In this document: piece after piece, positions 2,311-64,000 of the stretch
Numbering within the stretch: the first letter of the stretch is position 1
Layout of the letters: the number at the start of each line of letters is the position of its first letter
Virus record (IMG/VR): IMGVR_UViG_3300036770_007621
Origin: a virus
Direction: 5' to 3' (one strand)
Length of the DNA stretch: 64,000 bases
Position numbers and translations under genes: made by a program
Notes under the pieces: generated by a model
Databases searched by the model: none
Told to the model about the DNA's origin: nothing
What the model saw: only the letters and a program-made list of their open reading frames with translations

Positions 2311-3861
2311 TTATTTAGGTGTGCTAGCGCCCGATTTTTTATTTTTTATTTCTTGATTATGTCTTAGAACGTTAGCTTTAGATGCTTCAAAATCAGATTG
2401 AATACTTGTTATTGTAGCTGCTAAATTAGTGTTAATTTGTTTTGCCTCTTCTATAAGGTCATTAATTTCACTTTCAGTAGATTCATCAGTTACTCTAGAA
2501 GTTATTTTTAATAATTCAGATTTTGCTTTTGCAATTTCAGAATTAATTTTTGCCATTTGCCCATTAAAATATCCTCGCCTCATACTTTGTTTTGCAATAA
2601 AATCTTCACCCATAATATTAGGAGATTTATTAAAAGAATCAATCTCATCTTTTAATGCATTCATTCTTGAAATGTTAGACGTTAAAATATTATTTAATGC
2701 ATTTTTCTTTTTAATAATTTTTCTTTTTTTAGATTCTTCTATTGCTGCAGGATTGCCTTGGACTGTGTAGCCATATAATTCTTTATCTGTAGCAACAGAA
2801 AAATCATTATTTTCAAGTTTCTCTAATCTTGCATCTTCTGCAGTTTCTTTTCTTTCCTCTTCAGCCTCTTCTCTTTCCCGTTTTTTTTCATTTCTTAAAG
2901 TTTTTCTTTCTTCTCTTTTTAATTGTCTTTCCTTTTGTCTTATTTCAGCCGCTCTATCTGCAGTTAATGGAACCTTTTTAATTGCAGTATCTGGGACTTC
3001 TCCCGTAAGCTCTACTGCCTTAATTGCATTTAATTTTTCTATTGCAGAACTAATAATTGCAACACAAGCGTCATATTCTGACTTATATTTATCCCAATCT
3101 TCAGAACTAAACCCTGAATACAATGACAAAAAACCCAGACTACTTGGTCGAGCCTCTTCTTTAGCATCCATAACCTCCTCTTTAAGAGTATATAATGCTT
3201 CTACTGTCGGATTTGCCGAATCTACCCCCGAAACTGCTGTTTGAAGCCTTGTATGATCACTAGATCCGGTCAAGAGTGTTTTCCCTCTATCAGCTATAAC
3301 GGTAGCTCTTGCTTTTGCATCTTTTGTAAATTTTATAGCCTCATTTTTTAAAGAAGCCACATACTCATTTAGATTCATCTTTATGATCTCTTCAGCAGCA
3401 AATATTCTCTTCACCGCTTGTATCGCCTCCGCCACCGATAACTTGCCAGTAGGCTCCTTGCTTAAAGTCCTCTTAATCGCTTCCTGACGCTCTGTTACCG
3501 TCATCACCTTGTGCTTGCCCTCCACATCCTTAAGCACATGACCACCTTCAGGATGAGCAAAATCAATTAAATCCTCTCCAGTCTCCTTAGATGTCTCATA
3601 CAATGTCTGAGCCTTCTTATAATGTACATAATTCTTCTCAATGTCCTCTGCGTGCTTGTGCAATCCCTCTCTGCGTAATCCCGCACATAATTTAATTATG
3701 CTCTCCGATAAATTAACGCCAGGTGTTAAATCACGCCCCATCATTAAATGCTCCGCAGATTTAATAGTAGGTGATCCCTTAACTAATCCCTTGTCAATTG
3801 CGATCTTCTCCAAAGAACGAAGTACTGCTGAATCATCAAATTTGCCATGTTTAAAAGTCAT
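2311..3861 (-). CDS. Hypothetical head-region protein with a long charged helical segment
   Basis: Start refined to MTFKHGKF (ATG 3861) using the GAGG Shine-Dalgarno 6 nt upstream; E/K/R-rich centre. Confidence 0.75.
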   Translation of the reverse strand: MTFKHGKFDDSAVLRSLEKIAIDKGLVKGSPTIKSAEHLMMGRDLTPGVNLSESIIKLCAGLRREGLHKHAEDIEKNYVHYKKAQTLYETSKETGEDLIDFAHPEGGHVLKDVEGKHKVMTVTERQEAIKRTLSKEPTGKLSVAEAIQAVKRIFAAEEIIKMNLNEYVASLKNEAIKFTKDAKARATVIADRGKTLLTGSSDHTRLQTAVSGVDSANPTVEALYTLKEEVMDAKEEARPSSLGFLSLYSGFSSEDWDKYKSEYDACVAIISSAIEKLNAIKAVELTGEVPDTAIKKVPLTADRAAEIRQKERQLKREERKTLRNEKKREREEAEEERKETAEDARLEKLENNDFSVATDKELYGYTVQGNPAAIEESKKRKIIKKKNALNNILTSNISRMNALKDEIDSFNKSPNIMGEDFIAKQSMRRGYFNGQMAKINSEIAKAKSELLKITSRVTDESTESEINDLIEEAKQINTNLAATITSIQSDFEASKANVLRHNQEIKNKKSGASTPK

Positions 3862-3892
3862 TACACGCCTCAATAAGTTAAATTATTTCTAT

Positions 3893-3901
3893 AATATACC
3901 A
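3893..3901 (-). promoter_or_regulatory. Extended -10-like motif TGGTATATT
   Basis: One of seven TGnTATAT(A/T) copies found upstream of gene starts. Confidence 0.4.
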
Positions 3902-3931
3902 AATTATAGAAAGAGTCTATTAAATAAATGT

Positions 3932-5104
3932 TTATGCAGATAATTTATTTTTATATTCTTTTCTTATCCTACATATTACTTTTCTTCCTATCCCCATCAC
4001 CCTGCTCAACTCCATAATAGATCTACTATCATTTACTATCATATCCATCTGCTCTTGCGTTAAACTCGCTTTGTTGTGCGGTATCCTGCCACAACCCTTA
4101 CCCTTTCTATTCTCACTTATCTTTTTCCTAGTCTCATCCGTCACCAATACCGGCTTCTTCGGTAATACCTCTAATATCCCATTTCTAAGCAATCTAGATC
4201 CATGTACGGTACAATATCTAACATTATTAACAATCTTATATTTTGCTCTTCCAGCTACCATGCAACCATCAGCATGACAATAAATTTCTTCTGTTGCATA
4301 CCTAATTGCAGCCTTCTTTTCCCAAGTAGCCTTAATCCCAGCTGCCATTTTTTCCAATTGCTCTTTAGGTATTTTTTTTCCTTTATGAGATTCTGACATC
4401 TTCTTGCGAACCTCTTCCGTATAAATAGAATCTTTATTCAAAGAAGATCTCCATTTAGAATATCTTTCCTTCTGCTCATCAGTCCATTTGTGACCCTGCG
4501 CCGGATGACCCTTTGTCATAATTTGCTTTTTAGTCGCCTCAGATAACTTTCTTTTTAATTCTTGTCGCTGCTCGTCAGATAGTGATTTCCAACGATTGCT
4601 TAAATTTTTTTTCCAAGCTTCAGATTTAGGAGCGTTATATCCTCCCAATGTAGCATTGTATCCCTTACCATTTTGGATATAACTATCATATTTAGTAACA
4701 AATTTTGTTTCTAATTCATTGGCAGCATCTGTATTATTGCAAGAATCTATAATATCAAATTTAAAATTATTTGCCCCATGTTTTTTTATAGCTAAATGAA
4801 ATGGTAAGTCAGAATTTTCAGAACTTTTTATATGAGCCTGCCACCTAGCAATAGGATTTACAGATTGACCAATATAAATTTTGTTGTTTATTAAACATTT
4901 TGCACGATAAATATAAATTGTTCTATCTTCTTTATTAGTATTAGATCTTTTTTCTTCTCTAATTTTTTTTGCCACATCTTTAGGACTAATTAAAATTACA
5001 TCCTCTATTGCAGCAACTTCTACTGCGTTAATTTCTAATGAATTAACCTCTGCGTTTTGATTTTCTAAATTTTTATTATCAGTTGGTTGAATTTCTTGAG
5101 TCAT
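3932..5104 (-). CDS. GIY-YIG homing endonuclease with NUMOD3-type repeats
   Basis: YIYRAKCLINNKIYIGQS motif, conserved E and YN residues, TEEVRKKMSESHKGKK-type repeats. Start refined to ATG 5104 (GGAGGA SD). Confidence 0.9.
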   Translation of the reverse strand: MTQEIQPTDNKNLENQNAEVNSLEINAVEVAAIEDVILISPKDVAKKIREEKRSNTNKEDRTIYIYRAKCLINNKIYIGQSVNPIARWQAHIKSSENSDLPFHLAIKKHGANNFKFDIIDSCNNTDAANELETKFVTKYDSYIQNGKGYNATLGGYNAPKSEAWKKNLSNRWKSLSDEQRQELKRKLSEATKKQIMTKGHPAQGHKWTDEQKERYSKWRSSLNKDSIYTEEVRKKMSESHKGKKIPKEQLEKMAAGIKATWEKKAAIRYATEEIYCHADGCMVAGRAKYKIVNNVRYCTVHGSRLLRNGILEVLPKKPVLVTDETRKKISENRKGKGCGRIPHNKASLTQEQMDMIVNDSRSIMELSRVMGIGRKVICRIRKEYKNKLSA

Positions 5105-5121
5105 ATGTTCCTCCAACTTCA

Positions 5122-5130
5122 TATATATCA
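5122..5130 (-). promoter_or_regulatory. Extended -10-like motif TGATATATA
   Basis: 17 nt upstream of the GIY-YIG ATG. Confidence 0.4.
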
Positions 5131-5144
5131 TCAAAATCAAAATT

Positions 5145-5834
5145 CTAAAGCCATAAAAATTCTAGAGATACATTGAGCGGAGAAGGTGGGGCGGTAACCA
5201 TAGCTACAGCTGGGTGGATACTACTAGGTCTTCTAGTGGTTAAGAAGCCATATTCGCTGACGTACAAATTAGCTCTAACGGGATATTGTTGATTTGTTTC
5301 GTACTGATCGGTTTGGGCGAACATTCTATTAAACCACACGGTCATTCTACCGGATCCTTGGGTACTATCATCACCTGGGATATTGGCGACTTGGTAGGTA
5401 TAGTTAACGATAGTACGGATGGCATTAGGTTTACCTGAGCCGGTGAGGTCGAAGTTAAGAGGAGTACCTGCGACGAAGGTAATTACGCCATTTACGGGGT
5501 TAAGGACAACGTTAACGGTGGAGGTAAAGCTATTGGCTATGATATTAGGTTTACGCAATTCTGCTTTAATATCTATGGGTGTGACGAGATATCCATCTGG
5601 ACCTGGGACACCGACAGCGGGAACAATAACGACTTCGTTCCAGGAGACGTTGGTGAAGGCACGAGTTTTGATATCATCGATAATACCTAAAGGTGCGGTA
5701 CCATTGGAGACGGTTGCCATAACTTGATTACCGATGACGGTGAGTTCGGCTATCATGCCAGGTTGAAATTCTGCCGAAGGGTCACAAATAAAGCTGGCTG
5801 GCAAGGCATTAGAGACTTGTACTAAGCGTAACAT
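5145..5834 (-). CDS. Putative head decoration/cement-like structural protein
   Basis: 229 aa, beta-rich; FQPGMIAEL...GTAPLGIIDD pattern resembles capsid decoration proteins; lies downstream of the protease/scaffold gene. Confidence 0.45.
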   Translation of the reverse strand: MLRLVQVSNALPASFICDPSAEFQPGMIAELTVIGNQVMATVSNGTAPLGIIDDIKTRAFTNVSWNEVVIVPAVGVPGPDGYLVTPIDIKAELRKPNIIANSFTSTVNVVLNPVNGVITFVAGTPLNFDLTGSGKPNAIRTIVNYTYQVANIPGDDSTQGSGRMTVWFNRMFAQTDQYETNQQYPVRANLYVSEYGFLTTRRPSSIHPAVAMVTAPPSPLNVSLEFLWL

Positions 5835-5865
5835 TCTAGCTCCAAAAAATAATAGACGACGTTCT

Positions 5866-5874
5866 TGTTATATA
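5866..5874 (+). promoter_or_regulatory. Extended -10-like motif TGTTATATA
   Basis: 7 nt upstream of the LAGLIDADG ATG; no SD visible. Confidence 0.4.
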
Positions 5875-5881
5875 TAAATTT

Positions 5882-6709
5882 ATGCAGAAAACAAAAAGAA
5901 ACCACCAAATTGATCAAGAAATAATTTCTTTGTACAATAGTGGTTTAACGACATATGAGGTTGGAGAAAAAGTAAAATGTTCTCAAACATGTGTTTTAAA
6001 TTGTTTGAAAGAGAATAACATTTGTAGAAGATCTACTTCTTCATATAATACTAAGTATATAACCAACTTATATTTTTTTAATAAAATAGATAATGAGGCG
6101 AAGGCATATTTTCTTGGATTATTATATGCAGATGGAAATAATTATGTGAGGAGGAAGCATAGTTATGAGGTATCTATTAAGTTAAAGGCAGAAGATAAAT
6201 ACATATTAGAAAAGTTAAGAGATTATTTATGTCCTGAGATGAGTTTAAAAGAAGTAGTAGATAAGAGAACGGGCAATTTGCATTATTTATTAAAAATAAA
6301 TAGCAAAGAATTATCTGAGCAATTATTTAAATTAGGGTGTATACCGAATAAAAGTTTGATATTAAAATTTCCTATGATTGAGGAGGATTTAATATCTCAT
6401 TTTGTACGTGGATATTTTGATGGGGATGGGAGTTTATATAGTAGAAAGGCTAATAAGAGTGGGCATATAAATTATATTTGGCAGATTACATCTACTAGAT
6501 TTTTTTGTGAATATTTAAAAAATTATTTATTGAATAAATATAAAATAAATGGGACTATGAAATTGGCGTGTAGGAAAAGTAATTTAATAACTACGACATT
6601 ATCGGTGGGAGGCAATAAGCAGGTAGAAAAGTTATTAGTTTGGATGTATGGTGGGGCGAGTTTGTATTTAGATAGAAAATATAAAAAGCCTCTGTTAAGA
6701 GGCTTTTAA
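5882..6709 (+). CDS. Free-standing double-motif LAGLIDADG homing endonuclease
   Basis: YFLGLLYADGN and FVRGYFDGDGS motifs, N-terminal HTH, C-terminal LDRKY; antisense to its neighbours. Confidence 0.92.
   Translation: MQKTKRNHQIDQEIISLYNSGLTTYEVGEKVKCSQTCVLNCLKENNICRRSTSSYNTKYITNLYFFNKIDNEAKAYFLGLLYADGNNYVRRKHSYEVSIKLKAEDKYILEKLRDYLCPEMSLKEVVDKRTGNLHYLLKINSKELSEQLFKLGCIPNKSLILKFPMIEEDLISHFVRGYFDGDGSLYSRKANKSGHINYIWQITSTRFFCEYLKNYLLNKYKINGTMKLACRKSNLITTTLSVGGNKQVEKLLVWMYGGASLYLDRKYKKPLLRGF
6684..6707. terminator. Hairpin, likely bidirectional intrinsic terminator
   Basis: AAAAGCCTCT-GTTA-AGAGGCTTTT between convergent genes. Confidence 0.7.
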
Positions 6710-6736
6710 AGTAAAGTAAGTTAAGATAAGTTAAGA

Positions 6737-7114
6737 TCAAGGTTCTTCTTCGAAGACTTCTTGGAAGACATCTTCGACTAAAATATCATCTGCCATATTT
6801 ATGTCTGGCATATTAAATACGGTTCCATGATTTTTTAAATTTTTAACCATTTTATCAGAAGTTAATTTTTTAGTATGACTATCTGATACTTTGGTGGGAT
6901 TTTTAGGTTTACGGTGTTTGGTGGCAATTTTGTGTAAAATATGTAGTAATTGATCTGCATGAGCGGTGAAGCCACTGGTTTCTAGCACATCGATAGCAGA
7001 GTTAACATAATCTACAGCTTGAGTAATGTCAGATAAATCTTGATTACTGGCTTTTTTAACTAATTGTTGATGCATGAGTTCAACAATTTCATTTTCTAAT
7101 TTTGGTTTTAGCAT
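6737..7114 (-). CDS. Small head-region protein with shared helical motif
   Basis: 125 aa; AVDYVNSAIDVLETSGFTAHADQLLHILHKIA; paralogous to 7135..7362. Confidence 0.75.
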   Translation of the reverse strand: MLKPKLENEIVELMHQQLVKKASNQDLSDITQAVDYVNSAIDVLETSGFTAHADQLLHILHKIATKHRKPKNPTKVSDSHTKKLTSDKMVKNLKNHGTVFNMPDINMADDILVEDVFQEVFEEEP

Positions 7115-7134
7115 ATTACCTTTATTTTTAATAA

Positions 7135-7362
7135 TTAAAACTTTTTTAATTTAGAAGCAAAGCTAGTTATTACTTGAGTAATTTCATTTGCTTCTTGGTT
7201 CATTCCGGCTTTGTCAAAAATATCGGCAGCTTTATGCAAATAATCAATTGTTCTGGCAAATTTATTAAAAGCATATTTATTTTCTAGTTGGTTATTAACT
7301 AGTTGTTTTTCCATTGTGCGATAAAGTTCGTTGGAAATATCTTTTTCATCATCGTAAAACAT
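7135..7362 (-). CDS. Small head-region protein with shared helical motif
   Basis: 75 aa; TIDYLHKAADIFDKAGMNQEANEITQVI; GAGG SD. Confidence 0.75.
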   Translation of the reverse strand: MFYDDEKDISNELYRTMEKQLVNNQLENKYAFNKFARTIDYLHKAADIFDKAGMNQEANEITQVITSFASKLKKF

Positions 7363-7401
7363 AAAACCTCAGTATTATGTAATAATAAACATAGAAAAAA
7401 C

Positions 7402-7437
7402 AAAAGTGCTATAAGAAATATTTCTTATAGCACTTTT
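7402..7437 (-). terminator. 36-bp perfect palindrome, intrinsic terminator
   Basis: AAAAGTGCTATAAGAAATATTTCTTATAGCACTTTT followed by a T-rich tail on the minus strand. Confidence 0.8.
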
Positions 7438-7540
7438 TTTATACTACATCATTTTTTAAATTGAGCTTTAAAATCGACTGCAGTAATTTTATTGTCTCCG
7501 CCTACATTTCTTTCATGCATTTGTTTAAAATCTTTAGACG

Positions 7541-8203
7541 TTAGACTTTTTTTTTACCGTTTGAGCTACCTGAGCCATTTGATTTGCCTTTCATAGCAGG
7601 CTTACCCTTCATGGCTGGTTTTTTCTTAGATTTTTCTTCTTCTTCTTTTTCTTCTTGTTTTTTAGCTTTTTTAGCTTCAACAATTAAGGATGCTAATTTT
7701 AAGCTAACGCTAGAGCTATTTTCCATTCCAACTGCATCTAAAGCTGCTGAAGCGGTTAATAAGCTGTCAATGGCTACATCAAAAGCGGCGGTAGCTGATA
7801 AATCTTCTACCATATCTGTGTCTAATTCATCAAGATCAAGATCAAGATCAAGATCATCTGACATTCCATAATCATCTGACATAGCATCATCGCTTGACAT
7901 GCCGTCGTATGACATAAGATCATCATATACTAATCCAGTGTCTTGCATACCCATATCTTCAGTATGCATCTTGTCTTTGGAATGCATCTTGTCTTTGGCA
8001 TACATTTTATCACCACATTGACAGCTATCCATCATGGCTGAATCCATGACTTTATTGCAATCTGGGCATTTTTGTTTGCCTTTAGCTTGATTCATATCTT
8101 GAGCATATTTATAGTGACCATTAAATAATGATTTGTGTTCTTTGCTGTTTAACACTGCATCCATTGTTGCAGCAACAAAATCTGATACGCTTTTATTATT
8201 CAT
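7541..8203 (-). CDS. Acidic Met/Asp-rich head-region protein (may extend to 7449 in the -1 frame)
   Basis: 220 aa; CPDC motif, DLDLDL repeat, basic tail ending in an A9 run. Confidence 0.75.
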   Translation of the reverse strand: MNNKSVSDFVAATMDAVLNSKEHKSLFNGHYKYAQDMNQAKGKQKCPDCNKVMDSAMMDSCQCGDKMYAKDKMHSKDKMHTEDMGMQDTGLVYDDLMSYDGMSSDDAMSDDYGMSDDLDLDLDLDELDTDMVEDLSATAAFDVAIDSLLTASAALDAVGMENSSSVSLKLASLIVEAKKAKKQEEKEEEEKSKKKPAMKGKPAMKGKSNGSGSSNGKKKV

Positions 8204-8222
8204 AATATCCCTCTATGTAAGA

Positions 8223-11200
8223 TCAGAACATTCTCTTTGAAGTCTTAGCGAATGCTGCAGACAATTGTGACCAATCATCAGATTGTGCGGTGTTGACTTC
8301 ACCTGAACCAATCATACCTACTTGTGGCATACGTCCAGCTTCTTTTTGTAGAGTTGGTGCATGTTTAGCTACTACTCTCTTTAATGACTGGAATGACTCA
8401 TCATTAAACTTCATGATTTCGTCTACTTGAGCTGAGACAGCATAGCTATCATTGACGCAAAGACCACGATCTACCATTTCATGAGCTAATTCATAGGCTC
8501 TAGCTAATTTAACACGATAACCATTTAATTCATCTTCTACTTGAGCTTTGACGTGTTCTTTTACTAATTCGCTAGCAAATTCTGAACCACCGTCTACTTG
8601 ACCGTAGTATTGCTTGTAGTACTTAACTGCGGCAGGATCTAAGCCTTCTGCTACTAAAGCGGGGAAGTCAGCAGTATCAAGCTTGCCTTCGCTAACTAAA
8701 CGAGCAATTGCTTCTGCTTCTTTGCGAACTTTAACTGGAGCAGTAGCAACGTCCATCATCTTACGGCTTCTTTGTTCGACTGTTTCTACTAGACCTAATT
8801 CATCGCTAGGCTTGACATCAAGTTTAGTTTGACCATTGGTAAGTCTGTGTGCTTGATCTAACATATCGCTAAATTCTGCTTTTGACATATCGTGTAATTC
8901 TCCATCATCCATCTTACCAAGGGCGTCTGCAGCAAGTTTGGCGCGAAGAGCAGAGCGACCACTCTTGGTGTCAAATGCAGTGGCTTTCTTAACTGCAACT
9001 GTTTTGCCAGGATTTGCACTCATTGCATCATTTACCTTTGATGCATCATCTACATAAACCATATCGCTATCCATATCGTTAGTATCACCGTCATCATCGT
9101 ATGACATGAGGTCATCGGCGCTGCTTTCATCTGACGTGAATAAATTTTCATTTAAGCCAGAACCCAATGGCATATTTAATAAGTCTGCAAGATCTGATTC
9201 GGAACCTTGAGCAGATTTCTTTAGAGCTGCTTTTCTACGTTGTGCTGTCTTTTTCAATGAAGCCTCCATTTGTGCACGTTTGACAAGAGCCTTGGTGCCA
9301 CGAGCATATTTAACAAAGGCTGTCATTAATTTTAAACCATCAGCGATAGCTGTTTTAGCTTCTGCAAAAGCATCTGAAGCTAATGTATTTACTAATTCTT
9401 TATTAGCTCTGTTTACGCTACCATTTTTGTGAATAGTAGATAGCATGCCTAATTCTTGATAGTGATCATTTAATTCTGCAATTGATTCTTTCATAGCGCG
9501 AGTTAATGCGCCATTTAATTCTTTGCGAAGTGTGTTGAGAGTAGATACGCTAAAGCTAGATGCTGCTGTAGCTAATTCTCCACCAGCTTCTGCACCGGCT
9601 TCAGGAACTTCTGCGCCAGCTTCAGGGGCTTCTTTGCCTAATTCTTCAATGGCTCCCATTTCAGCTTTTTCACCAGTAAGGGCTCTTACTGCCTCTACTA
9701 GATCTGAGCTAAGGTCTCTTACCTTTTCAGATAGTCTAAGAGCTGTTTCTTTAGGATCACCTTTCATACCCTCATCTTCTACATCCTCTTCGCCAGCAGC
9801 TGGTGCGGCAGGAGCAGCTGCGCCCATATCAGCAGGTGGTGCAGCAGGAGCAGCAGCAGCAGGAGGAGCGGCTGGGGCAGGAGGAGCAGGAAGAGCAGGA
9901 GGAGCAGCTTGAGCTTGTCTTACTAGTGTGCGAACTCCATCAGGACCATATGATTTTACTTTATCAAGTAATCTGGCTCCAAAGTCTTTTGTAGCAATAG
10001 AATCATACATCATATTAGTATTGCCACCAGATAATTCACGAACTGATGCTGTAAGTAATAGTTTATCTCCAAGAAGAACTTGCCAACCGCTGTTTTCAAA
10101 ATTAGTAGTACCGTCTAAGTTAGCTGCTTTTACAAATCTTGCTTTTAGACCTGCGCGAGCTAACATCTGCTTGCGCTTTAGTTCATTTGCCTCATCAGAA
10201 GAAGCAGGTGAAGGGTGTAAACTATTTACATCACCAACGCCAGGAAATGGCTTCTGTCCTACCATTTGCTTGTCTTCTGAACGAGCATCCATATTTAATG
10301 AATCAACTGGATATTTAACTTTTCCAGGGGTGGGTTCATTTACACCACCGCCACCTTGATAATAAGCTCTTTTATCTTCTAATGCTTGTTTTGCCATGTT
10401 GACAATAGCAGTACGACGCATAGCGCGCTCTTCAGCTTCTGCACGAGCTAACATCTTTTTACGCTGTAACTCATCAGACTCATCAGATGAAGCAGGTGAT
10501 GGATGTAATCCTGTTACGTCGCCAACTCCAGGGAATGGTGATTGACCTACCATTTGCTTGTCACCATTCATTCTCATATCCTCATTTAAAGGATCTTTTG
10601 TATACTTGGCTTGACCTGGGGTAGGCTCATTAACGCCACCGCCACCTTGAAAATAACCTCTTTTATCAAAATTTGATCCAGACATATGTTGTTCCTCTTG
10701 TATGTTTGATGTATTTGCTAACTTATTCAATTTGTTTTTCATTAATTGTAACTTCGTTTCAATAGCAGCGGTAACTTCACGAAGTTCATTAATAGAATTT
10801 AAATCTGTAATGTCTTCTAAATTATTAGAAGCATATCTTGCATTTTGCGGGATACCCGGAGGCATCATGTTGTTAGAATCTTGAGTATCTGTTTTTAATG
10901 CTCCATTATTAGCATTTTCTTTCATTTGTTTTACTTGAGATAAAATATTCTGTATTTCTTGCTCAAAACCATCTAAAGTATTTGACTCACATGTGAAATT
11001 AGCTGTATCACCAGGCTGATCTCCTTGAGTGGAAATACTAGCATGGAATACATCGGCAAATTTATTTAACTCATTAGATTTATTTTCTACATAAGTATTT
11101 AATGTGTTAGCTGCTGCAATAATATGCTTTATATGAGCTTTTGGATCTGCCCCATTAACTACAATTGATAATTCAATTGGAGCCAAATCAATATTAATTT

Positions 11201-12971: not shown

Positions 12972-12978
12972 TATTCAC

Positions 12979-13578
12979 CTATAATATGAGGTTTCTATTT
13001 ATAATAGATAAAAATTCTTCTGAAGTTTTAGTGCCTTTTTGTAAATTGCAAGAGGCGCAAGATGGCACTAAATTACTAATACAATGATTTCCGCCTCTAC
13101 TTAATGGAACTTTATGATCTAAATGCAGATTTATTCCTCGTTTAACAAAAATTTTACAATAAAAACATTGATTGTTATTATTAATTAATAAATTATTAAT
13201 TTCTATTTGACTGATATTTTCTGCATTAATTAACTTTTTTCTTTTATTATTTTTTAATAAAATATATTCTTTATTATTTTCTCTATACTTTTTGTTTTTA
13301 TTTTTAAAATATTCTTTATTGTTTTGATAATAAATTCTTTGTTTTTGCAATCTTTCTTCTCTATGTAAAGCATGTGATTTCTTACAACTATCTCTACATT
13401 TATCTATATTTTTTATATATTGTTGTTTGCGCAATTGCTTAATATGTTCTTTATTTTTTTGAGCATATTCTTTTACACATTGCTTGCATCTTATTGCATG
13501 ATCATCTAAATAAGATTTATTTTTAGAAAATTCTTGTAATTGTTTTAATAAATTACAAGTGCAACATATTTTTTGCAT
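12979..13578 (-). CDS. HNH endonuclease
   Basis: CFYC...LHLDHKVPLSRGGNHCISNLVPSCASCNLQKG; N-terminal CxxC zinc motifs. Confidence 0.92.
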   Translation of the reverse strand: MQKICCTCNLLKQLQEFSKNKSYLDDHAIRCKQCVKEYAQKNKEHIKQLRKQQYIKNIDKCRDSCKKSHALHREERLQKQRIYYQNNKEYFKNKNKKYRENNKEYILLKNNKRKKLINAENISQIEINNLLINNNNQCFYCKIFVKRGINLHLDHKVPLSRGGNHCISNLVPSCASCNLQKGTKTSEEFLSIINRNLIL

Positions 13579-13730
13579 TAGTTTTTTAAATTTTTAGAGT
13601 TATTTTCTGATTCTTTTGATTTTTCAGCAAGCAAAGAAGCTTCTTTTAAAGCTTTCTTTTGTTCTTCTGTTAATTGTTCTGGTTCAACTACTGAGAGTAT
13701 TTTACCATCGCCATGTTTAATAAAAGCCAT
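13578..13730 (-). CDS. Small hypothetical protein (50 aa)
   Basis: Below the ORF-track cutoff. GAGG SD; MAFIKHGDGKILSVVEPEQLTEEQKKALKEAS...; TAATG overlap with the HNH start. Confidence 0.65.
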   Translation of the reverse strand: MAFIKHGDGKILSVVEPEQLTEEQKKALKEASLLAEKSKESENNSKNLKN

Positions 13731-13741
13731 ATAAACCTCGA

Positions 13742-14395: not shown

Positions 14396-14415
14396 AATAA
14401 TATTGTGTTTTATGC

Positions 14416-48684: not shown

Positions 48685-48685
48685 A

Positions 48686-50498: not shown

Positions 50499-50506
50499 TG
50501 AAAGCT

Positions 50507-50515: not shown

Positions 50516-50518
50516 GCT

Positions 50519-50552
50519 AAAAAGGAGCTAGGTTTAAACCTAGCTCCTTTTT
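50519..50552 (-). terminator. 34-bp perfect palindrome, intrinsic terminator
   Basis: AAAAAGGAGCTAGGTTTAAACCTAGCTCCTTTTT downstream of the SSB gene. Confidence 0.85.
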
Positions 50553-50572
50553 AATTCTAAGTGCTTTTAATG

Positions 50573-51262: not shown

Positions 51263-51349
51263 ATTTTTCTCCTAACTGTTTTTTTTCTATTGTACACTAA
51301 CGGTACTTTTATCTGTTTAACAATAATCGGACTATTATAATCTAATTAT

Positions 51350-51640: not shown

Positions 51641-51656
51641 TTTATTACCCTTTCTT

Positions 51657-53161: not shown

Positions 53162-53233
53162 ATTTTCTTACTCCAAATAGACGTTGTGTCCGACAGTATA
53201 TACCCCACATTTGCAGGTTTTAAATATAAAAAA

Positions 53234-56854: not shown

Positions 56855-56860
56855 AAATCC

Positions 56861-57865
56861 TCACTTATCGGCATAAGAGAATACTTTGTCTAATGACATT
56901 CCTTTGGTTTCTTCTACTAATTGTAGATTTTTCAGAATATTCATTCTTACTTCTTCATCTGGTGGACCTACTTCTTTCACAAATCTAAATCTAGAGGGTC
57001 GGCTTTTGATAGAATCATCTATTTTAGTAATATCATTAGCTGTCATAATAAACATAACTTGTTTATAATCATTATGAACGCCATCTAATGCATTAATAAA
57101 AGAATCAAAAGTAAATTTAACTTGATCATTTTTCATAGCACATTCTCTACCATGAAAATAATTATCAAAGTCCTCCATTAAAACAATACATCTTTGAGGA
57201 ATAGTAGAGAACATTAAAGAAATATCTAAGTTATTGTATTCAGGATTTAAATACACTATGTATATGGGCAAGCAGTATTTTTTGCTTAAATACTTAACAA
57301 ACTGTGATTTACCATTACCTGGAGGACCGTATAACAAACATCCTGTTTTTCTTTTTTTACCAGACAAAACTAATTTTAAATCTTCTTCAATGTCTTGATA
57401 AATTGATTTAGACAAATAAATATTAGGATTAGATTCGCAAATCAGCTGCCCTAATCTATCAGATCCTCTTGGCACTAAAGCCATGATAGAAATAGTACTA
57501 TCATCTTGATCTGAGCCATCTAACATATTATCAATTTTGCTTCTTTGCCATCTTGGAAAAATAATATAAGAAACACTTTCTTTACTTTCCCAACCAGTAG
57601 TTAGCAATCTTTCATTTTTACCAAAATAAAAAAAACAGCCATTTAAAAAAACTAAAGCTTCATATATTTCTGGATATTTAGGATCTTTTACTTTATCCTT
57701 AGATAAGACCCAAGCTTTAGAATTATTTTTTTTAATTTTATTAATTAATTTTTTACTTATTTCATTATCTAGTCTATAATTATTTAAAATTAGATACTTA
57801 AATACAGCCCAGCTAGAAACAAGAATTGTGCTAACAATACCAATAATAGTTAAAAAACTATTCAT
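56861..57865 (-). CDS. Membrane-anchored AAA+ ATPase (BCS1-like)
   Basis: N-terminal hydrophobic helix; GPPGNGKS, LMEDFD, MTAN...RPSRF. Confidence 0.85.
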   Translation of the reverse strand: MNSFLTIIGIVSTILVSSWAVFKYLILNNYRLDNEISKKLINKIKKNNSKAWVLSKDKVKDPKYPEIYEALVFLNGCFFYFGKNERLLTTGWESKESVSYIIFPRWQRSKIDNMLDGSDQDDSTISIMALVPRGSDRLGQLICESNPNIYLSKSIYQDIEEDLKLVLSGKKRKTGCLLYGPPGNGKSQFVKYLSKKYCLPIYIVYLNPEYNNLDISLMFSTIPQRCIVLMEDFDNYFHGRECAMKNDQVKFTFDSFINALDGVHNDYKQVMFIMTANDITKIDDSIKSRPSRFRFVKEVGPPDEEVRMNILKNLQLVEETKGMSLDKVFSYADK

Positions 57866-57868
57866 AAA

Positions 57869-58387
57869 TCATTCATATCCTTCTGGAATCTTTTCACGTT
57901 CAGTTGCTTGTGTGGGAGTATAGCCCAGAATAGTTCGACGTAAACCTGCGGCAATATCTTTATAATGATGGTGGCTTTTTATTATTATATCATATTTCTT
58001 TTCTAAGACTACTTTACTAGCTCTAGCTTTTGCTAAGCTAATAGAAATTTCATCTACTTCAGGAGATGAGTTACCAGCCCAAATTTTCATATCTGTAGTA
58101 GTCTTACTACCATCAGGAGCTTTATACTCTAAAGATGCTTTGTTTTTAACAGAATTAATTTTAGATTCTAAATAACCCACTGTTTTTACTATTTTACCTA
58201 AATATTCTGTTAGAATATCAGCTCCTCGCAAAGCTTGTTGTTGTAACAATTCTGCATGAGCTAAATCCACTGGGTCTGACTCTTGTAAATGTAATAATAC
58301 TTCTTGAATTTCAGTTAAGTCAAAATTAACAAAATCTTCTTCTAATTCATTTCCTAAAAAATCGCCTAATCTTACCTTGCGACTCAT
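57869..58387 (-). CDS. Coiled-coil protein, possibly a UvsY-like recombination mediator
   Basis: 172 aa helical protein; size and position near recA/SSB; functional guess is weak. Confidence 0.4.
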   Translation of the reverse strand: MSRKVRLGDFLGNELEEDFVNFDLTEIQEVLLHLQESDPVDLAHAELLQQQALRGADILTEYLGKIVKTVGYLESKINSVKNKASLEYKAPDGSKTTTDMKIWAGNSSPEVDEISISLAKARASKVVLEKKYDIIIKSHHHYKDIAAGLRRTILGYTPTQATEREKIPEGYE

Positions 58388-58397
58388 AAATACATTC

Positions 58398-58757
58398 CTA
58401 TTTCTTTTTTTGTTTATTATCTATTAAACTTATTTTTTCATCTAATGATTTAATTTTTGAATCTAATTCTTTTATTTTATCTTTGAATTGAGATACAATA
58501 TTACTAACCTCTGAATGCGCTGCGCGCAAGTGCTGATGTACCATTACGCTCATTAAAAATAAATAAACTTCAAAACTAGTTTGGCGCTTGGATGGAGGTT
58601 TTAAAAAAATAATAATACCTGCATCGTCTGTCTCAAATAAATCTATGAATAAATCTTCGCCTTTGTTGGTATTGGTAGTATAAGATTTTACAATCTTTTG
58701 ATACATCCCCCACTCATCTTCTGTCATATTTACTTTTTTATTATCAATTACTCTCAT
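58398..58757 (-). CDS. Hypothetical protein
   Basis: 119 aa with a C-terminal coiled coil. Confidence 0.7.
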   Translation of the reverse strand: MRVIDNKKVNMTEDEWGMYQKIVKSYTTNTNKGEDLFIDLFETDDAGIIIFLKPPSKRQTSFEVYLFLMSVMVHQHLRAAHSEVSNIVSQFKDKIKELDSKIKSLDEKISLIDNKQKKK

Positions 58758-58765
58758 ATTTTATC

Positions 58766-59581
58766 TCAAGACCTTGAAAAACTTCCTTTTCCACGATTTG
58801 AACCAGATTCAAAATTTTGCCTAGATTGATTTACCCTGCTGTGCAACTGCTGTAATTTAACTAAATCAGCCGGATTAGATCCACTTTTAGATTTAGCTCT
58901 ACTTGCCATATTTAATACTACCGAAGGAATGTCATCATCTATGCTCACATCACCTAAAGATGAAGAAATCTCATTTCCATCTAACAAAGACTGCATCTCT
59001 AATACTGCATCTGGATCTGCAGATTCTATTAACTCAGGTGATAAAAATTGAGAACTTCCACTTTCATTAGCCAATAAAGGAGTACCTACTCTTTTAATCT
59101 GCTGCGCCAATTTTTTTAAATGCTCTGTTTTTTCAGAAGCATTCTGAAATCCTTCTATTTTGGGCTTTACAGCCTCTGCCCTCTTAAAAAATTCATTGGT
59201 CTTGTCTTCAGATTGTATTCTTTCTGCCAATACCTCTTGCTCTCCAGCATCTGTCTTTACTTTTACAGTGAATTTTTTATTTTCTTTTCTTTCCTCAAAA
59301 TCTTTTTGATCTTCCACTCGCTTAATTTCTTTTAAAGCTTCTTTTGGAACATAATTAATTAATTTTTCAGAATCTGTTCTAATAAAATTAAAATTAGATA
59401 ACATCCAATCATTTAACTGATCAGAATAATCTTGCATTTTAACCATAGTGTCATTTAATATTGACAATAAGTTTTTTAACGCTTCATCCATAATAGACTG
59501 CCCACAATATGGGCAAATATTTTGATCAATGGCATGTTTCCATTTAGGATTAATATCTGATTCACATGAAATGCATTTCAT
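58766..59581 (-). CDS. Hypothetical protein with N-terminal zinc ribbon
   Basis: Start refined to ATG 59581 (AAGGA SD); CISC...CPYC. Confidence 0.7.
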   Translation of the reverse strand: MKCISCESDINPKWKHAIDQNICPYCGQSIMDEALKNLLSILNDTMVKMQDYSDQLNDWMLSNFNFIRTDSEKLINYVPKEALKEIKRVEDQKDFEERKENKKFTVKVKTDAGEQEVLAERIQSEDKTNEFFKRAEAVKPKIEGFQNASEKTEHLKKLAQQIKRVGTPLLANESGSSQFLSPELIESADPDAVLEMQSLLDGNEISSSLGDVSIDDDIPSVVLNMASRAKSKSGSNPADLVKLQQLHSRVNQSRQNFESGSNRGKGSFSRS

Positions 59582-59599
59582 AAGATTTCCTTTCAACAA

Positions 59600-59608
59600 T
59601 ATATATCA
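59600..59608 (-). promoter_or_regulatory. Extended -10-like motif TGATATATA
   Basis: Overlaps the dnaE stop; 18 nt upstream of the next ATG. Confidence 0.4.
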
Positions 59609-62600
59609 ATCATCTTCTTGTTCAGAATCTAAATCAATTAATCCCTGATCATAAAGATTGTTTTCTATTTCTTCCAATAAAGAAGATGCTGGCTTATCCA
59701 TTTCTTTTTTAGCATCTTTCAAAGATACTTTTTTAGATTTTAAATCTTCTGGCAAAGAAGGAGGCGGGGCTACATTATACATCTTTTCAAAAATAATACC
59801 AAGCTCTTGCTCATATATATTAGCCGTTCCAGAAAAATGAATACCCAAACCAACATCAAAAACTACTTTGTTATGCACCTTCTTTAAGTATTTTTGAAGA
59901 TCTGCCCACCTATCAGGAAAAATTGTCAAACTACAACGATCCCCATTTCTATCTTCAATTGTAGCCTTAATCATAGGCTGACCATAATATTTACTAGTCT
60001 CTTTCTTAACCTTAAATTCAAAAAAATCTTTGACAATTCCTTTCATAGAAGGTAATGGCGTTTTTTCTTTTGCATTTTTTAATTGCCTAATCACAATATG
60101 ATCATCTTTAAAGAAACTACCATATGCCACTGGCGGCTTACATACAAATGACTCGCCCATATAAAATTGCTCTAATGCATATTTTTCAGCAATACTCCAG
60201 TCTAATTCCTTTGACCATGGATAAATAAACTCTTCCTTAGATGGATCATGCTTTTTGCACCATACCTGTAGTTTCTTCCTGTAATCCGATACATACAAAA
60301 ACATAAGCTTGCGAGGTAAGTTGAAACAATCCATCGCCCCAGATGCAATCAATGCCTGTATATTGTTAGCTCGTACTTTCTTAGAATCTACCCTAACCAT
60401 AAAATCAAAGAAATTAGTAAAAGGTCTCTTCTCTACAATATCATTAATAGCCTCATCACCAACAAACTTCAATGCATCCAAACCAGTAATTAATTGATTC
60501 TCGCCTACAATAGAATATTGTAACTTAGATTTATTAATGTCTGGTGGTAAAATCTTAATCTTATTGGCTCGTAACTCCGATTTAATACGCTCAATATTAA
60601 CTTTAGCGTCTGGAGTATTAGACTTTACCTCTGCCATCAAGTTGGCTAACAAAAATTCAACAGGATAATGAGCTTTTAAATAGGCCGTCTTGTAAGAAAC
60701 CATAGAATATAAAACTGCGTGAGCCGCGTTGAACCCATACGAATTGAAGCCACTTACGACATCTATCCATATCCTCTCGGCAATATTTTCATTAATACCA
60801 TTCTTTACAGAATCTTCGATAAACTCCATTTTCCACTGTTGAACCTTCTTAGGATTCTTACCTTTTTCTTTAGTAAGTTTTCTAAGGCGATCCGCAGAAT
60901 GAAGACTCCAACCAGCTATGTCCTGAGCCAAATACATAAGACACTCTTCATATAAGCCAAACCCATAAGTATTAGCGAAGGCTCGTTTTAAATTAGGGTG
61001 TAATAATATTATAGGCTTCTTACCATCTCTGACTTTAATAAAATCATCTCGCATATCGCGAGCAGAAGGGCGAGCTAAGGCGTTAATGTTGGCTAGATCA
61101 TTGATACTTCTAGGCTTGATTCTCTTACACAAATCTACTGTTCCACCAGAAGTACCGAACTGGAAGACGGCAAAAGTATCACCTTTAGAAATTAGTTCAT
61201 ATGTTTTCTCATCATATTCTTCATAGTCTAAACTATCTGGGGGCAAAGGCTTACCTTGTTCTTTAATCAAGCGATAAGTCTCACCGATAATATCTAAGGT
61301 TGACAAGCCAAGAGTATCCATCTTGACCAATCCATTTTCTTCTGCTTTATCTTTATCATACTCTAGTGCTAGAGCACCATCTTTATCTCGGCGTAGTGGA
61401 ACCAAACCAGTAAGAGGTCTGGCAGAAATAATAATACCTCCAGCGTGGGTAGACCAAGCACGATATTTACCACAAATATCTTTGTACTTTAAGAACTCTG
61501 GATATTTCTTACAATACTCGGCAAAGAGTGGTACTTTTTCATAAGCATCATCAATAGAATGAATATCTGATGGAATACAATCTGCTACGTCGTTACCTAA
61601 TTTAATAGCTTCTTCTCTGGAGCCGCCTAGCTCACAGGCTCTAGAAATATCTCGAACATATACTTTTGGAGTGATGGTGTTAACGTTGGAGACGTGGGCA
61701 ACATGATCATCTCCGTATTTATGACGAAGATAGTTTTGAACCTTCTCCCTTCCAGAAGGAGCAAAGTCTAGGTCTATGTCTGGAAAGCTGCTCTTTTCTT
61801 TATTATGGAATCTGGCAAAGATAAGATTGTATTTAATAGGATCAGCTTGATGGATTCCTAATAGATAAGCGATTAAGGAGCCACCGACTGAGCCACGACC
61901 TTCACCTACTGGGATATTGTTCTTTCTGGCCCAGTTAACATAATCGGCAACGATTAGCATATAGCTAGAGAAGCCATGATATTCTAATACATCTAGTTCT
62001 TCATTGATTCTGTCGAGATAGAGAGATTTTTCTTCATCGGAAGAAAATTTAATACGAGGGAATTTATTTTCACAGGCAAAGCGAAGATATTGTTTATCTT
62101 CGGATAGTTGTTGGACAAATTCTGGTTGAGAGGAAGACCATTGTAAGAATTGTGGATAATCTAATTCATCTTTAACGGGAAAGATAGGAAGTTCTTTACC
62201 GGAGGGATTAGAGTATTTAGGATCGATCCAGTTGGGAATTTCGCACATATCAGCGAAGTGTATAGTATTTTGGCAGATTTGGGTGGCAAATTCTTCACCA
62301 TAGTTTCTTGAGAAGAAGTTTTTAACTTCCTCACCGGATTTGAGGTAGAAATCTGGTACTGGATATTTGAGGCGAAAATTGGAATATCTGGGCTGATGAG
62401 ATCCGATAGAAAGAAGAACATCATGGATATCATGATCTTCTTTATTTAGATAGTGGGCATTGCAGGCGGGGACGATTTTTACATCATGTTTTTTAGCCAG
62501 TTCAATAAGTCTACGGTTAAGGAATTGTTGATCAATTTCGTCATTATAGACATTGGAGCCACGTTTCATGTTATTGGGCTGAACTTCTACGCCTAATTTA

Positions 62601-63100
62601 TCTTGGAAGATTTCTTTTAATTTTAAGAGTGTACGTTCAGCTTCATCAAATTTACCTTTGGTGAGTAATTGGCTGATGATACCATTACCGCAGGCGGTGA
62701 GGCAGATAAGACCTTCTGAATAAGTTTGAAGTAGGTTCCAATCGATGACGGAATAGACTCTTTTACCGGAAAAGGAGTTATGATCGAAGCCTTTTTTGTT
62801 TAAGGTAAGTAGATTTCTATATCCAATAGCATTAGTTGCTAATAATACTAAATGTCTGAATTTATCTTCTGGATTTTTATTATCATTTTGAAAATAGCAT
62901 TCGCAGCCAATAATTAGTTTAACATTGGTATCTTTGGAGACTTTATAGGCTTCCCAGGCGGAGGCGAGGGTACCATGGTCGGTGATAGCGATGGCTGGAT
63001 AATCTAATTGTTTAGCTTTATTGAACAGGTTTTTGACGGAGATGGTAGAATCTAGGATAGAGTAATCGGTTTGATTATGTAGGCTTACGAAAGGTGTCAT
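59606..63100 (-). CDS. dnaE: DNA polymerase III alpha subunit (family C)
   Basis: PHP domain (AITDHG, GCECY, HLVLLA), GRGSVGGSL, SFPDIDLDF, STHAGG, KMDTLGL, YGFNAAHA. Confidence 0.97.
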   Translation of the reverse strand: MTPFVSLHNQTDYSILDSTISVKNLFNKAKQLDYPAIAITDHGTLASAWEAYKVSKDTNVKLIIGCECYFQNDNKNPEDKFRHLVLLATNAIGYRNLLTLNKKGFDHNSFSGKRVYSVIDWNLLQTYSEGLICLTACGNGIISQLLTKGKFDEAERTLLKLKEIFQDKLGVEVQPNNMKRGSNVYNDEIDQQFLNRRLIELAKKHDVKIVPACNAHYLNKEDHDIHDVLLSIGSHQPRYSNFRLKYPVPDFYLKSGEEVKNFFSRNYGEEFATQICQNTIHFADMCEIPNWIDPKYSNPSGKELPIFPVKDELDYPQFLQWSSSQPEFVQQLSEDKQYLRFACENKFPRIKFSSDEEKSLYLDRINEELDVLEYHGFSSYMLIVADYVNWARKNNIPVGEGRGSVGGSLIAYLLGIHQADPIKYNLIFARFHNKEKSSFPDIDLDFAPSGREKVQNYLRHKYGDDHVAHVSNVNTITPKVYVRDISRACELGGSREEAIKLGNDVADCIPSDIHSIDDAYEKVPLFAEYCKKYPEFLKYKDICGKYRAWSTHAGGIIISARPLTGLVPLRRDKDGALALEYDKDKAEENGLVKMDTLGLSTLDIIGETYRLIKEQGKPLPPDSLDYEEYDEKTYELISKGDTFAVFQFGTSGGTVDLCKRIKPRSINDLANINALARPSARDMRDDFIKVRDGKKPIILLHPNLKRAFANTYGFGLYEECLMYLAQDIAGWSLHSADRLRKLTKEKGKNPKKVQQWKMEFIEDSVKNGINENIAERIWIDVVSGFNSYGFNAAHAVLYSMVSYKTAYLKAHYPVEFLLANLMAEVKSNTPDAKVNIERIKSELRANKIKILPPDINKSKLQYSIVGENQLITGLDALKFVGDEAINDIVEKRPFTNFFDFMVRVDSKKVRANNIQALIASGAMDCFNLPRKLMFLYVSDYRKKLQVWCKKHDPSKEEFIYPWSKELDWSIAEKYALEQFYMGESFVCKPPVAYGSFFKDDHIVIRQLKNAKEKTPLPSMKGIVKDFFEFKVKKETSKYYGQPMIKATIEDRNGDRCSLTIFPDRWADLQKYLKKVHNKVVFDVGLGIHFSGTANIYEQELGIIFEKMYNVAPPPSLPEDLKSKKVSLKDAKKEMDKPASSLLEEIENNLYDQGLIDLDSEQEDD

Positions 63101-63194
63101 AATTATCCTTTAGGTATTATAATAAATGCAAGTCTTATAAAAAGCACTAAGCCGATGTGGCTTTGCATATTATTAGGGAATATAATATAATGGT

Positions 63195-63845
63195 TTACAG
63201 ACCAAATTTAATTTTTAGAGATTGCTCGTCAATGGTCTCTAAATTTTTAGAAATGTCTTCAATTATTTTAAATTGTTTTTTCCAAAATTTTTTATTTATA
63301 CTTTTACGAATTAAAATATTTTTTATATTTTGGAAGGGCAATTTTTTCTTAGCGAATAGGGAGTGAGCGATTAAGGAAACATCTGACCAATTATTTTGTA
63401 AAACAGATAATATTTCTTTTATTTTTTTCTTTTTAAAGTCGTATCTTTTTTTACCTGGTGGAGCGAGATTATGTTTTTTGATGATGGTAGCGGCTGATAA
63501 AGTATCATCGGAAGATCCATCTCTTAAAAAGAGTGGAAATTTATCAGAGCCGGATAATGTTTTAAAATGATATTTTTCTGCAGTTAGCCCGGCATATTTT
63601 ATACCGACTTCATTTTCTGCTAAAAATTTTGCAAGATAAGAATCTTTAAATTTAATTGGGTCTGGAATTTCGTATAGGCAGCAGCCTTCTATACGTTTAC
63701 TTTGCTTATTATAGGCGATGTATACTTCATATACTTTTGCTTTATGAAGCAGGGCATAGATAACATGTCCTGCTTCATGGAAGCTGGTGGTGATTAACTC
63801 AAATTGTCTAGAAATCTTGGCAAAAAGATCATATTGAGTCATCAT
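63195..63845 (-). CDS. M41/FtsH-like zinc metallopeptidase domain protein
   Basis: FHEAGH (HExxH), YAGLTAE, GSSDD; no AAA module. Confidence 0.65.
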   Translation of the reverse strand: MMTQYDLFAKISRQFELITTSFHEAGHVIYALLHKAKVYEVYIAYNKQSKRIEGCCLYEIPDPIKFKDSYLAKFLAENEVGIKYAGLTAEKYHFKTLSGSDKFPLFLRDGSSDDTLSAATIIKKHNLAPPGKKRYDFKKKKIKEILSVLQNNWSDVSLIAHSLFAKKKLPFQNIKNILIRKSINKKFWKKQFKIIEDISKNLETIDEQSLKIKFGL

Positions 63846-63873
63846 TATCTCCTTTATTTTAAGGGATAATATC

Positions 63874-64000
63874 TTATATTGATAGCAAAAATTGTTCTAA
63901 ACTATTTATTTTTTGTTCACAATCTATTGCTTTGCATTTGATTTGCAACCTATTAGATCCTAATGGACCGGTGATTACAAAATCTAAATTATCTACATAT
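63874..64000 (-). CDS. 3' end of a gene entering from the right edge
   Basis: Open frame YVDNLDFVITGPLGSNRLQIKC...FLLSI*. Confidence 0.6.
   Translation of the reverse strand, partial: YVDNLDFVITGPLGSNRLQIKCKAIDCEQKINSLEQFLLSI

Follow-up and report, generated by a model that had tools for sequence, protein, structure and literature searches.

What makes the minus-strand genes of a large phage genome turn, in mid-gene, from G-ending to C-ending synonymous codons? The question is raised by a stretch of 64,000 nucleotides (nt), the window, which comprises bases 110,332–174,331 of the 361,490-bp IMG/VR record IMGVR_UViG_3300036770_007621 (G000), and in which a first-pass annotation had noticed three such strand-asymmetry switches about 28 kb apart and had attributed them either to several regularly spaced origins or priming sites or to a periodic mutational footprint. 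Each switch is described here as a dipole (A, B, and C from left to right; positions marked w are window coordinates), with two arms of opposite composition around a centre. The dipoles prove to be a directional footprint that belongs to the DNA strand, is specific to one clade, and coincides with homing sites and mosaic tracts in conserved genes.

The record has a GC content of 33%, and its minus strand bears about 88% of the genes. The window holds head, packaging, and replication genes, among them those for the portal protein (phrog_16240), the large terminase subunit, DnaE, RecA, and a DnaG-type primase. A nucleotide search with two window segments against a phage collection gave no match, and relatives were recruited through protein matches; they are uncultured phages of 250–450 kb with conserved gene order, represented by four whole genomes (G001, G003, G004, and G005) and by contigs numbered with the prefix L.

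Reality and Strength of the Three Switches

The three composition switches are real and statistically overwhelming. The six counts on single 60-nt lines from which the first-pass annotation had argued were reproduced exactly, and its placing of the switches at three positions inside genes is borne out by both the whole-sequence and the third-position GC skew. The plain GC skew of the plus strand moves from about −0.3 to between +0.2 and +0.4 at w4.5–5.5, w32–33.5, and w61–62 kb, and its third-position skew passes from C-rich to G-rich near w5.2, w32.8, and w61.1 kb. At third codon positions and fourfold-degenerate sites, the coding-strand skew flips from values of +0.4 to +0.65 into values of −0.3 to −0.77; site by site, the third-position values left and right of the switch are +0.6 and −0.3 (A), +0.4 and −0.6 (B), and +0.6 and −0.77 (C).

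When the dipole statistic D, defined as the difference between G and C at third codon positions (G3 and C3) in the right 2.5 kb minus that in the left 2.5 kb, was scanned genome-wide, the window dipoles ranked 1–3 across the 361-kb genome (D = 266, 252, and 237; standard deviation 49), followed by a fourth, called dipole D, at 101.45 kb of the genome, i.e., w−8.9 kb (D = 188). Within dnaE, the G3/C3 counts are 19/146 at amino acids (aa) 1–476 and 93/31 at aa 744–1164 (Fisher p = 3.5e-29). Amino-acid composition, which had been envisaged as a trivial explanation, is ruled out as the cause, because shuffles of synonymous codons within the gene never come near the observed range of the cumulative sum (z = 14.7 for dnaE and 10.5 for the portal gene). 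First codon positions move in the same direction as third positions.

Homing Sites at the Dipole Centres

The features of dipole A are as follows.

w2971–4570: left arm, plus strand C-rich (plus-strand third-position C 0.18–0.38; in purine-ending (NNR) codons, G/(A+G) 0.50 vs. 0.14–0.20)
w3932–5140, minus strand: GIY-YIG homing endonuclease gene, 402 aa, astride the centre (PF01541 at 1.4e-8, NUMOD3, phrog_314 at 1.9e-37)
w4571–5370: central gap
w5145–5834, minus strand: conserved head-region gene, 229 aa, with 78–96% aa identity to relatives
w5371 to about w9700: right arm, plus strand G-rich (minus-strand genes with fourfold C 0.25, C/(C+T) 0.35 in pyrimidine-ending (NNY) codons, and G 0.01)
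w5882–6709, plus strand: free-standing LAGLIDADG homing endonuclease gene in the right arm (PF14528 at 1.1e-8)

The left arm covers the 5′ part of a 520-aa gene, whose G3 is 0.34 vs. 0.15 in its orthologs, together with the 3′ part of the GIY-YIG gene. The sharpest piece of the right arm is the 229-aa gene, with a C3 of 0.35 vs. 0.13 in orthologs and, on the plus strand, a G3 of 0.41 at w5371–5770. This gene is flanked by the GIY-YIG and LAGLIDADG genes, both of which vary in presence and absence among 80 relatives.

Dipole B is built around the portal gene.

w30171–31456: left arm, comprising the portal C-extein and the 5′ end of the next gene, plus strand C-rich (NNR G fraction 0.52)
w30632–33640, minus strand: portal gene, 1002 aa including the predicted intein (phrog_16240: N-extein at profile positions 78–262, C-extein at 290–420)
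w31457–32707, minus strand: predicted LAGLIDADG intein in the portal protein (aa 312–728; PF14528), at the centre
w32708–36570: right arm, comprising the N-extein, a plus-strand open reading frame (ORF), the HNH gene, and the large terminase gene, plus strand G-rich (fourfold C 0.27, Ile ATC 0.59)
w33775–34299, plus strand: 174-aa ORF in the right arm (G3 0.23, C3 0.04, the highest G3 − C3 of the plus-strand genes)
w34291–35034, minus strand: HNH, endonuclease VII-like gene adjoining the terminase gene (phrog_2255 at 7.6e-10)
w35037–36896, minus strand: large terminase subunit gene (PF05876; phrog_675 at 1.2e-59)

The portal insert is in-frame, has Cys at position 1 and GN followed by S at its C-terminal junction, and encloses a LAGLIDADG domain; by these sequence criteria, it is a predicted intein. 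It is missing from the portal genes of 95 of about 107 relatives, and the top three portal dipole indices among about 108 relatives all come from intein-bearing portals. The G3 of the C-extein is 0.30 vs. 0.07–0.14 in most relatives. The HNH gene, 2 kb from the intein, varies in place and orientation among relatives, and its homolog is the opposite-strand ORF that centres the only true dipole found in the four relatives' genomes (1.5 Mb), at 272.0–272.7 kb of G003. The 174-aa ORF has no homolog in the four relatives.

Dipole C lies over dnaE, which is uninterrupted in the window and contains two sites that are occupied in relatives.

w58871–60870: left arm, comprising the 3′ part of dnaE and a 277-aa gene, plus strand C-rich (NNR G fraction 0.39)
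w59606–63100, minus strand: dnaE, encoding the DNA polymerase III alpha subunit, 1164 aa (PHP, DNA_pol3_alpha, finger, and HHH_6; phrog_405)
w60709–60721, minus strand: empty homing site 2 in dnaE (about aa 793–797), with inserts of 0.44–2.76 kb in relatives
w60871–61670: mixed zone between the empty sites (NNR G fraction 0.36 together with fourfold C 0.22)
w61671–63670: right arm, comprising the 5′ part of dnaE and a 216-aa gene, plus strand G-rich (fourfold C 0.37, Ile ATC 0.51, G 0.02)
w61880–61890, minus strand: empty homing site 1 in dnaE (about aa 405), with an in-frame insert of 1.1–1.3 kb in relatives

At site 1, the inserts of L013 (7466–8755) and L014 (11225–12343) are stop-free, and L231, which is 94% identical in amino acids, carries an insert of 1281 nt (5222–6502); the relatives' sequences here are consistent with an intein. 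At site 2, inserts occur in L012, L013 (9947–11551), and L014, as well as in L233 (84–90% aa identity; 2.76 kb at 748–3505) and L232 (0.44 kb), and stop codons are present in all three inserts that were translated, which suggests an intron. The mixed zone, in which G3 and C3 are both elevated, as expected if two dipoles overlap, lies between the two empty sites (w~61885 and w~60715).

The left arm of dipole C is common to L233 and L234 (G3 0.19–0.20, C3 0.07–0.08) and the right arm to L225 (99% aa identity) and L231 (94%). Contigs that are 94% and 84–90% identical in dnaE have inserts and arms, and those that are 98–99% identical lack inserts. Just past site 1, L231 differs from the window at 23 positions in the first 150 nt and at 1–3 in later bins, and identity to close strains near the dnaE sites alternates between 76–79% and 95–99% within a few hundred bases. 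At the centres there is accordingly an endonuclease gene, an intein or intron, or a site occupied in relatives, close relatives differ in whether they carry the element, and conversion tracts lie beside the sites. An origin of the skew in recombination patches, foreseen in the first-pass annotation as a competing explanation, holds to the extent that the centres are hot spots of homing and recombination with mosaic tracts.

Dipole Anatomy and the Strand Test

In both arms of each dipole, the third-position GC content (GC3) is elevated, at 0.30–0.36 vs. 0.13–0.20. In the left arms, purine-ending codons move toward G, with G/(A+G) at 0.39–0.52 vs. a baseline of 0.14–0.20, and in the right arms C is gained, with C/(C+T) at 0.34–0.38, fourfold C at 0.25–0.37, and Ile ATC at 0.51–0.59. 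The central zone of each dipole is near baseline or mixed in composition, the arms span 1.5–4 kb before baseline is reached again, and the negative "counter-dipoles" in the scan simply flank the positive ones. A dipole of this type is invariant under reverse complementation, and all strong dipoles found in this genome and its relatives have the polarity of an origin.

Irrespective of gene orientation, enrichment in G falls on the plus strand at the right of each centre and on the minus strand at its left. The two plus-strand genes in right arms, the 174-aa ORF in dipole B and the LAGLIDADG gene in dipole A (G3 0.21, C3 0.04), have the highest and second highest G3 − C3 of the 27 plus-strand genes (P ~1/351), and the minus-strand HNH gene within the right arm of dipole B has C-ending codons. 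As the skew follows the DNA strand, translational selection and sense transcription alone are excluded as causes. Nor are endonuclease genes G-ending by nature, since this HNH gene is C-ending and others elsewhere are at baseline.

Lineage Specificity and Direction of Change

The arms are not a property of the genes that carry them. The skew of dnaE is flat in 15 relatives, the arm genes deviate by 0.18–0.26 from their orthologs, and the arms are absent from the four whole genomes and from dozens of contigs. Dipoles A, B, C, and D co-occur in one clade, strongest in G000 and L241, weaker in the sister lineage (L093, L132, and L240), and absent elsewhere, so that a site-specific factor must be multiplied by a clade-specific one.

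Polarised substitutions give the direction. Among 70 third-position changes in the terminase gene on the G000 lineage, 44 are T>C on the coding strand (A>G on the plus strand), 5 are C>T, and 6 are A>G. In the 229-aa gene, T>C makes up 13–24 of 29–50 changes on the G000 lineage and is dominant, in parallel, on two sister lineages. In the portal gene, the lineage shows 19 T>C changes in the N-extein, 14 A>G and 12 T>C in the intein, and 18 A>G and 11 T>C in the C-extein. A sister lineage has a weaker portal dipole; the process therefore predates the split and continued after it. Across the dnaE subclade, forward changes are offset by reverse ones at the skewed composition, and the bias is therefore maintained. 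Taken together, the sequence comparisons indicate that the changes are directional and occurred in place, in arms specific to the clade. The mutational footprint proposed in the first-pass annotation was thus rightly called mutational, consisting of directional A:T-to-G:C changes in this clade.

No neighbouring-base preference was detected among 81 polarised A>G changes, and no C>T change was observed on the G-gaining strand of the terminase gene. Deaminase-type hypermutation of single-stranded DNA was rejected because a context preference and accompanying C>T changes are both missing.

The Fourth Dipole and Other Homing Sites

Five endonuclease genes cluster about a split major capsid gene, and dipole D lies within this group. 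The split, at L207:8146–10406 (G000 103,146–105,406), is about 5–7 kb upstream of the window; a LAGLIDADG_2 endonuclease gene stands between a 114-aa N-terminal piece and a 239-aa C-terminal piece (95–97% identical to relatives), and the interruption is probably an intron. The four further endonuclease genes encode an HNH protein, an HNH/DUF4379 protein, a 714-aa LAGLIDADG-HTH protein, and, on the plus strand, another HNH protein.

In a genome-wide census, about 16% of the genome lies within 1.5 kb of an endonuclease-like gene. Three of the top four dipoles fall inside that 16% (P ~0.014), and the remaining one is bracketed by the sites that are occupied in 84–94% identical relatives. Weaker dipoles of the same polarity occur at G000 25,951 (D = 121) and 191,751 (D = 113), with no endonuclease gene detected less than 1.5 kb away in either case. 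A candidate dipole at 411 kb of G003 was discarded as merely the edge of a GC-rich block.

Three further homing-type loci in the window are without a dipole.

w11541–12455: second LAGLIDADG intein (aa 173–477), in a 1582-aa ORF; a negative control, absent from the four relatives
w45885–46865 (G000 156,216–157,196): HNH-endonuclease-like matches with internal stops beside a 295-aa ORF, apparently a decaying endonuclease gene
w47246–47941: second GIY-YIG gene

Spacing of the Dipoles

The gaps between neighbouring dipoles are 14.05, 27.6, and 28.3 kb, and the period of about 28 kb that had been suggested does not hold up. An autocorrelation peak at 27–29 kb (r = 0.31–0.33) vanishes when 98–176 kb is left out, 14 kb separate the fourth strong dipole from the first, nothing occurs at further multiples of 28 kb, and the genes that anchor dipoles A and B are only about 12 kb apart in G001, G003, G004, and G005. 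Four giant paralogs at w17380–30583 correspond to a single locus in each of these four relatives, a lineage-specific expansion that accounts for the 27.6-kb gap between A and B, so that spacing follows gene layout. The chance of two gaps as nearly equal as 27.6 and 28.3 kb has a post hoc P of ~0.006–0.027; the spacing itself is real and confined to three sites, and the near-equality is treated here as a coincidence.

Proposed Mechanism

The account that we tentatively prefer, with somewhat less than even confidence, is that the dipoles are footprints of outward, error-biased DNA synthesis from recombination or break hot spots at homing sites. The centres, all of them hot spots of homing and recombination, lie in the most conserved genes; DNA synthesis would repeatedly begin there and move outward, either in the repair of endonuclease breaks or in recombination-dependent replication of the T4 type. 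This synthesis, or its single-stranded product, would be biased toward G in place of A. On either side, it is the strand pointing outward in the 5′→3′ sense that has gained G over 1.5–4 kb, mostly via A>G transitions, and minus-strand genes are therefore C-ending at the right and G-ending at the left. The bias would be long-standing in the clade and still operating.

A G-gaining strand of this kind could be produced by the leading strands of an origin, by extension of an invading 3′ end, or by the refilling of resected gaps, and damage to a resection-exposed strand would, by reasoning, yield the opposite polarity. The lack of C>T changes and of a motif argues for misincorporation of G opposite T or for an effect of the nucleotide pool. 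From these patterns we infer that breaks or initiation take place at the centres at present and that the bias has such a biochemical source.

Homing in T4 takes place within recombination-dependent replication, with co-conversion of the flanks (PMC2988022), and in yeast the nascent strand made by break-induced synthesis is left single-stranded over a long stretch and exposed to mutation (PMC9262586). The polarity observed here fits damage or errors in the nascent outward strand. A RecA-family recombinase is part of the machinery for recombination-dependent replication, and the phage encodes one, along with a DnaG-type primase and DnaE, the proteins to be looked for where T4-like starts are proposed.

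w52001–53161, minus strand: RecA-family recombinase gene of the phage (PF00154 at 7e-34)

Whether homing sites in the conserved genes of these very large phages serve more generally as recurrent break-induced replication origins that write kb-scale dipoles is a more doubtful proposition. What is newly added here is the homing-site link, the strand test, and the spectra of polarised substitutions; the mechanism is a moderately supported proposal.

Several observations weigh against outward synthesis from homing sites. Most intein-bearing portals are without a dipole, as are relatives that have both endonuclease genes of locus A; no dipole is present at 5 of the 9 endonuclease or intein sites of G000, the intein of the 1582-aa ORF among them, nor at any of the 18 endonuclease sites tested in the four relatives. 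The presence of an endonuclease is therefore insufficient, and a clade-specific factor must be assumed. The portal dipole grew with the intein present, although an element-bearing genome should be immune to its own endonuclease. The A>G changes lack sequence context, and with neither a rise in C>T nor a motif, simple deamination of single-stranded DNA does not fit. The statistics of the association between homing sites and dipoles are post hoc, and the related lineages are non-independent.

Weighing the Alternatives

True internal origins that fire in every cycle, started for instance by R-loops or primase, unrelated to endonucleases and perhaps regularly spaced, would give the matching polarity that is identical in all strong dipoles, including the switch from negative to positive skew of a bidirectional origin; the bias also persists in the dnaE subclade as if from firing in each cycle, the two longer gaps are nearly equal, and T4 origins, too, are situated inside genes. 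The skew of a bidirectional origin should, however, persist to the terminus, and here it fades to baseline within the length of an arm. A classical origin would lie in an intergenic region with initiator-binding repeats or an AT-rich unwinding element, and the centres lie inside ORFs; no dedicated search for initiator boxes was made, and a repeat search across the window found no repeats or elements common to the three centres, iterons included, and no polar oligomer (Chi- or KOPS-like) is enriched on the outward strands (maximum z = 2.9). Origin-like dipoles are missing from the orthologous genes of most relatives, the spacing is non-periodic elsewhere and depends on a paralog expansion specific to G000, and the coincidence with homing sites would be left unexplained. 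Such origins are unlikely: of the earlier proposal, the origin polarity stands and "priming sites" are compatible with the data, but regularly spaced origins are unsupported. Slightly less probable still is the view that the arms are imported patches, co-converted flanks from unsampled relatives that already had such a composition. The jumps in identity near the dnaE sites, the sharp tracts beside homing sites, and the polymorphism of the elements speak for it; yet a single transition dominates the terminase changes instead of the broad spectrum of a diverged donor, the arm proteins and their surroundings have the same closest sister lineages, the arms are no closer to any GC-rich relative, T>C recurs in parallel in three sister lineages, and to postulate a donor only shifts the problem, since the donor too would have to carry mirror-image arms. 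Import of dnaE from GC-richer relatives was considered and rejected, as identity to 13 relatives shows no jump; synonymous sites are saturated in this comparison. GC-biased gene conversion was likewise set aside, since by reasoning it could raise GC3 but produces no strand skew by itself.

Transcription could also act on both sides if divergent promoters at the centres exposed the non-template strand, for example in R-loops; divergent promoters in mammals show the same mirror-image GC-skew pattern, and plus-strand genes begin to the right of centres A and B. Dipole C, however, lies wholly inside dnaE without any plus-strand gene, the G-rich arm of dipole B begins about 1 kb to the left of the plus-strand ORF, and the sharpest part of that of dipole A lies to the left of the plus-strand endonuclease gene. 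Sense transcription by itself would give both arms one sign. Kb-long antisense transcription over the terminase, portal, and dnaE genes would be required, and we regard this explanation as improbable. Least credible of all is codon usage selected for translation, with C-ending and G-ending gene parts. The major capsid gene is C-ending in relatives too (C3 0.20 vs. G3 0.10), and expression level may account for part of the fourth dipole, but the complementary usage of the plus-strand genes in the right arms largely refutes such selection, the switches fall inside single genes whose orthologs have none, and first positions shift too.

Comparison with Known Systems

The dipoles resemble the skew switch at bacterial and phage origins in that the plus strand passes from C-rich to G-rich and each strand is G-rich away from the centre. 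They differ from it in being local, in the rise of GC3, in being driven mainly by A>G rather than by loss of C, in their lack of conservation, and in the absence of origin-like repeats. With T4-like homing and its co-conversion (PMC2988022), they share endonuclease genes, an intein, polymorphic sites, mosaic tracts, and a recombinase of the phage's own, but what is described there is the transfer of donor sequence. No description of a kb-scale, strand-asymmetric change in composition at homing sites was found in the literature, the coverage of which was incomplete, so that this is weak evidence of novelty.

Mutation clusters at breaks and in break-induced replication in yeast show a mirrored strand bias that switches at the break and extends over kilobases (PMC6786661, PMC9262586). 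Each such cluster arises in one event, through cytosine deaminases or alkylation, in contrast to the long-term, mainly A>G shift without a motif in this clade, and strands exposed by resection have the opposite polarity to that seen here. In vertebrate mitochondrial DNA, A>G changes accumulate on the strand that is displaced during replication. This asymmetry is alike in placing A>G on one strand relative to the start of DNA synthesis and unlike in spanning the genome and including C>T, whereas the dipoles are local and two-sided and have no excess of C>T.

A GC-Rich Block in the Clade

Every genome of the clade contains a GC-rich block (GC 50–58%) of short ORFs, at 290,000–361,490 in G000 (L319 being 344,001–361,490), 246–360 kb in G001, 414–452 plus 0–100 kb in G003, and 0–80 kb in G004. 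It has almost no family matches except one MYG1-family exonuclease, and scanning the terminal GC-rich block for Rfam families and tRNAs gave no hit. Downstream of the block runs a 50–100-kb gradient of G-ending codons that resembles a one-sided and much longer left arm. The block, labelled a "provirus" flank, may belong to the phage.

Implications

A local switch of GC skew in a phage genome is not to be taken for a classical origin, and codon-usage outliers within core genes do not necessarily imply horizontal transfer. If outward synthesis from homing sites is the correct explanation, homing elements or their hot spots would, beyond their effect on gene content, reshape base composition and codon usage strand-specifically over kilobases, and the genes affected would be the most conserved ones, those for the capsid, portal, terminase, and polymerase. 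Active homing or initiation sites, even "empty" ones such as those in dnaE, could then be readable from sequence alone, giving a sequence-only marker of where DNA synthesis starts in uncultured giant phages, and the dipoles would represent a natural case of break-associated mutagenesis over evolutionary time.

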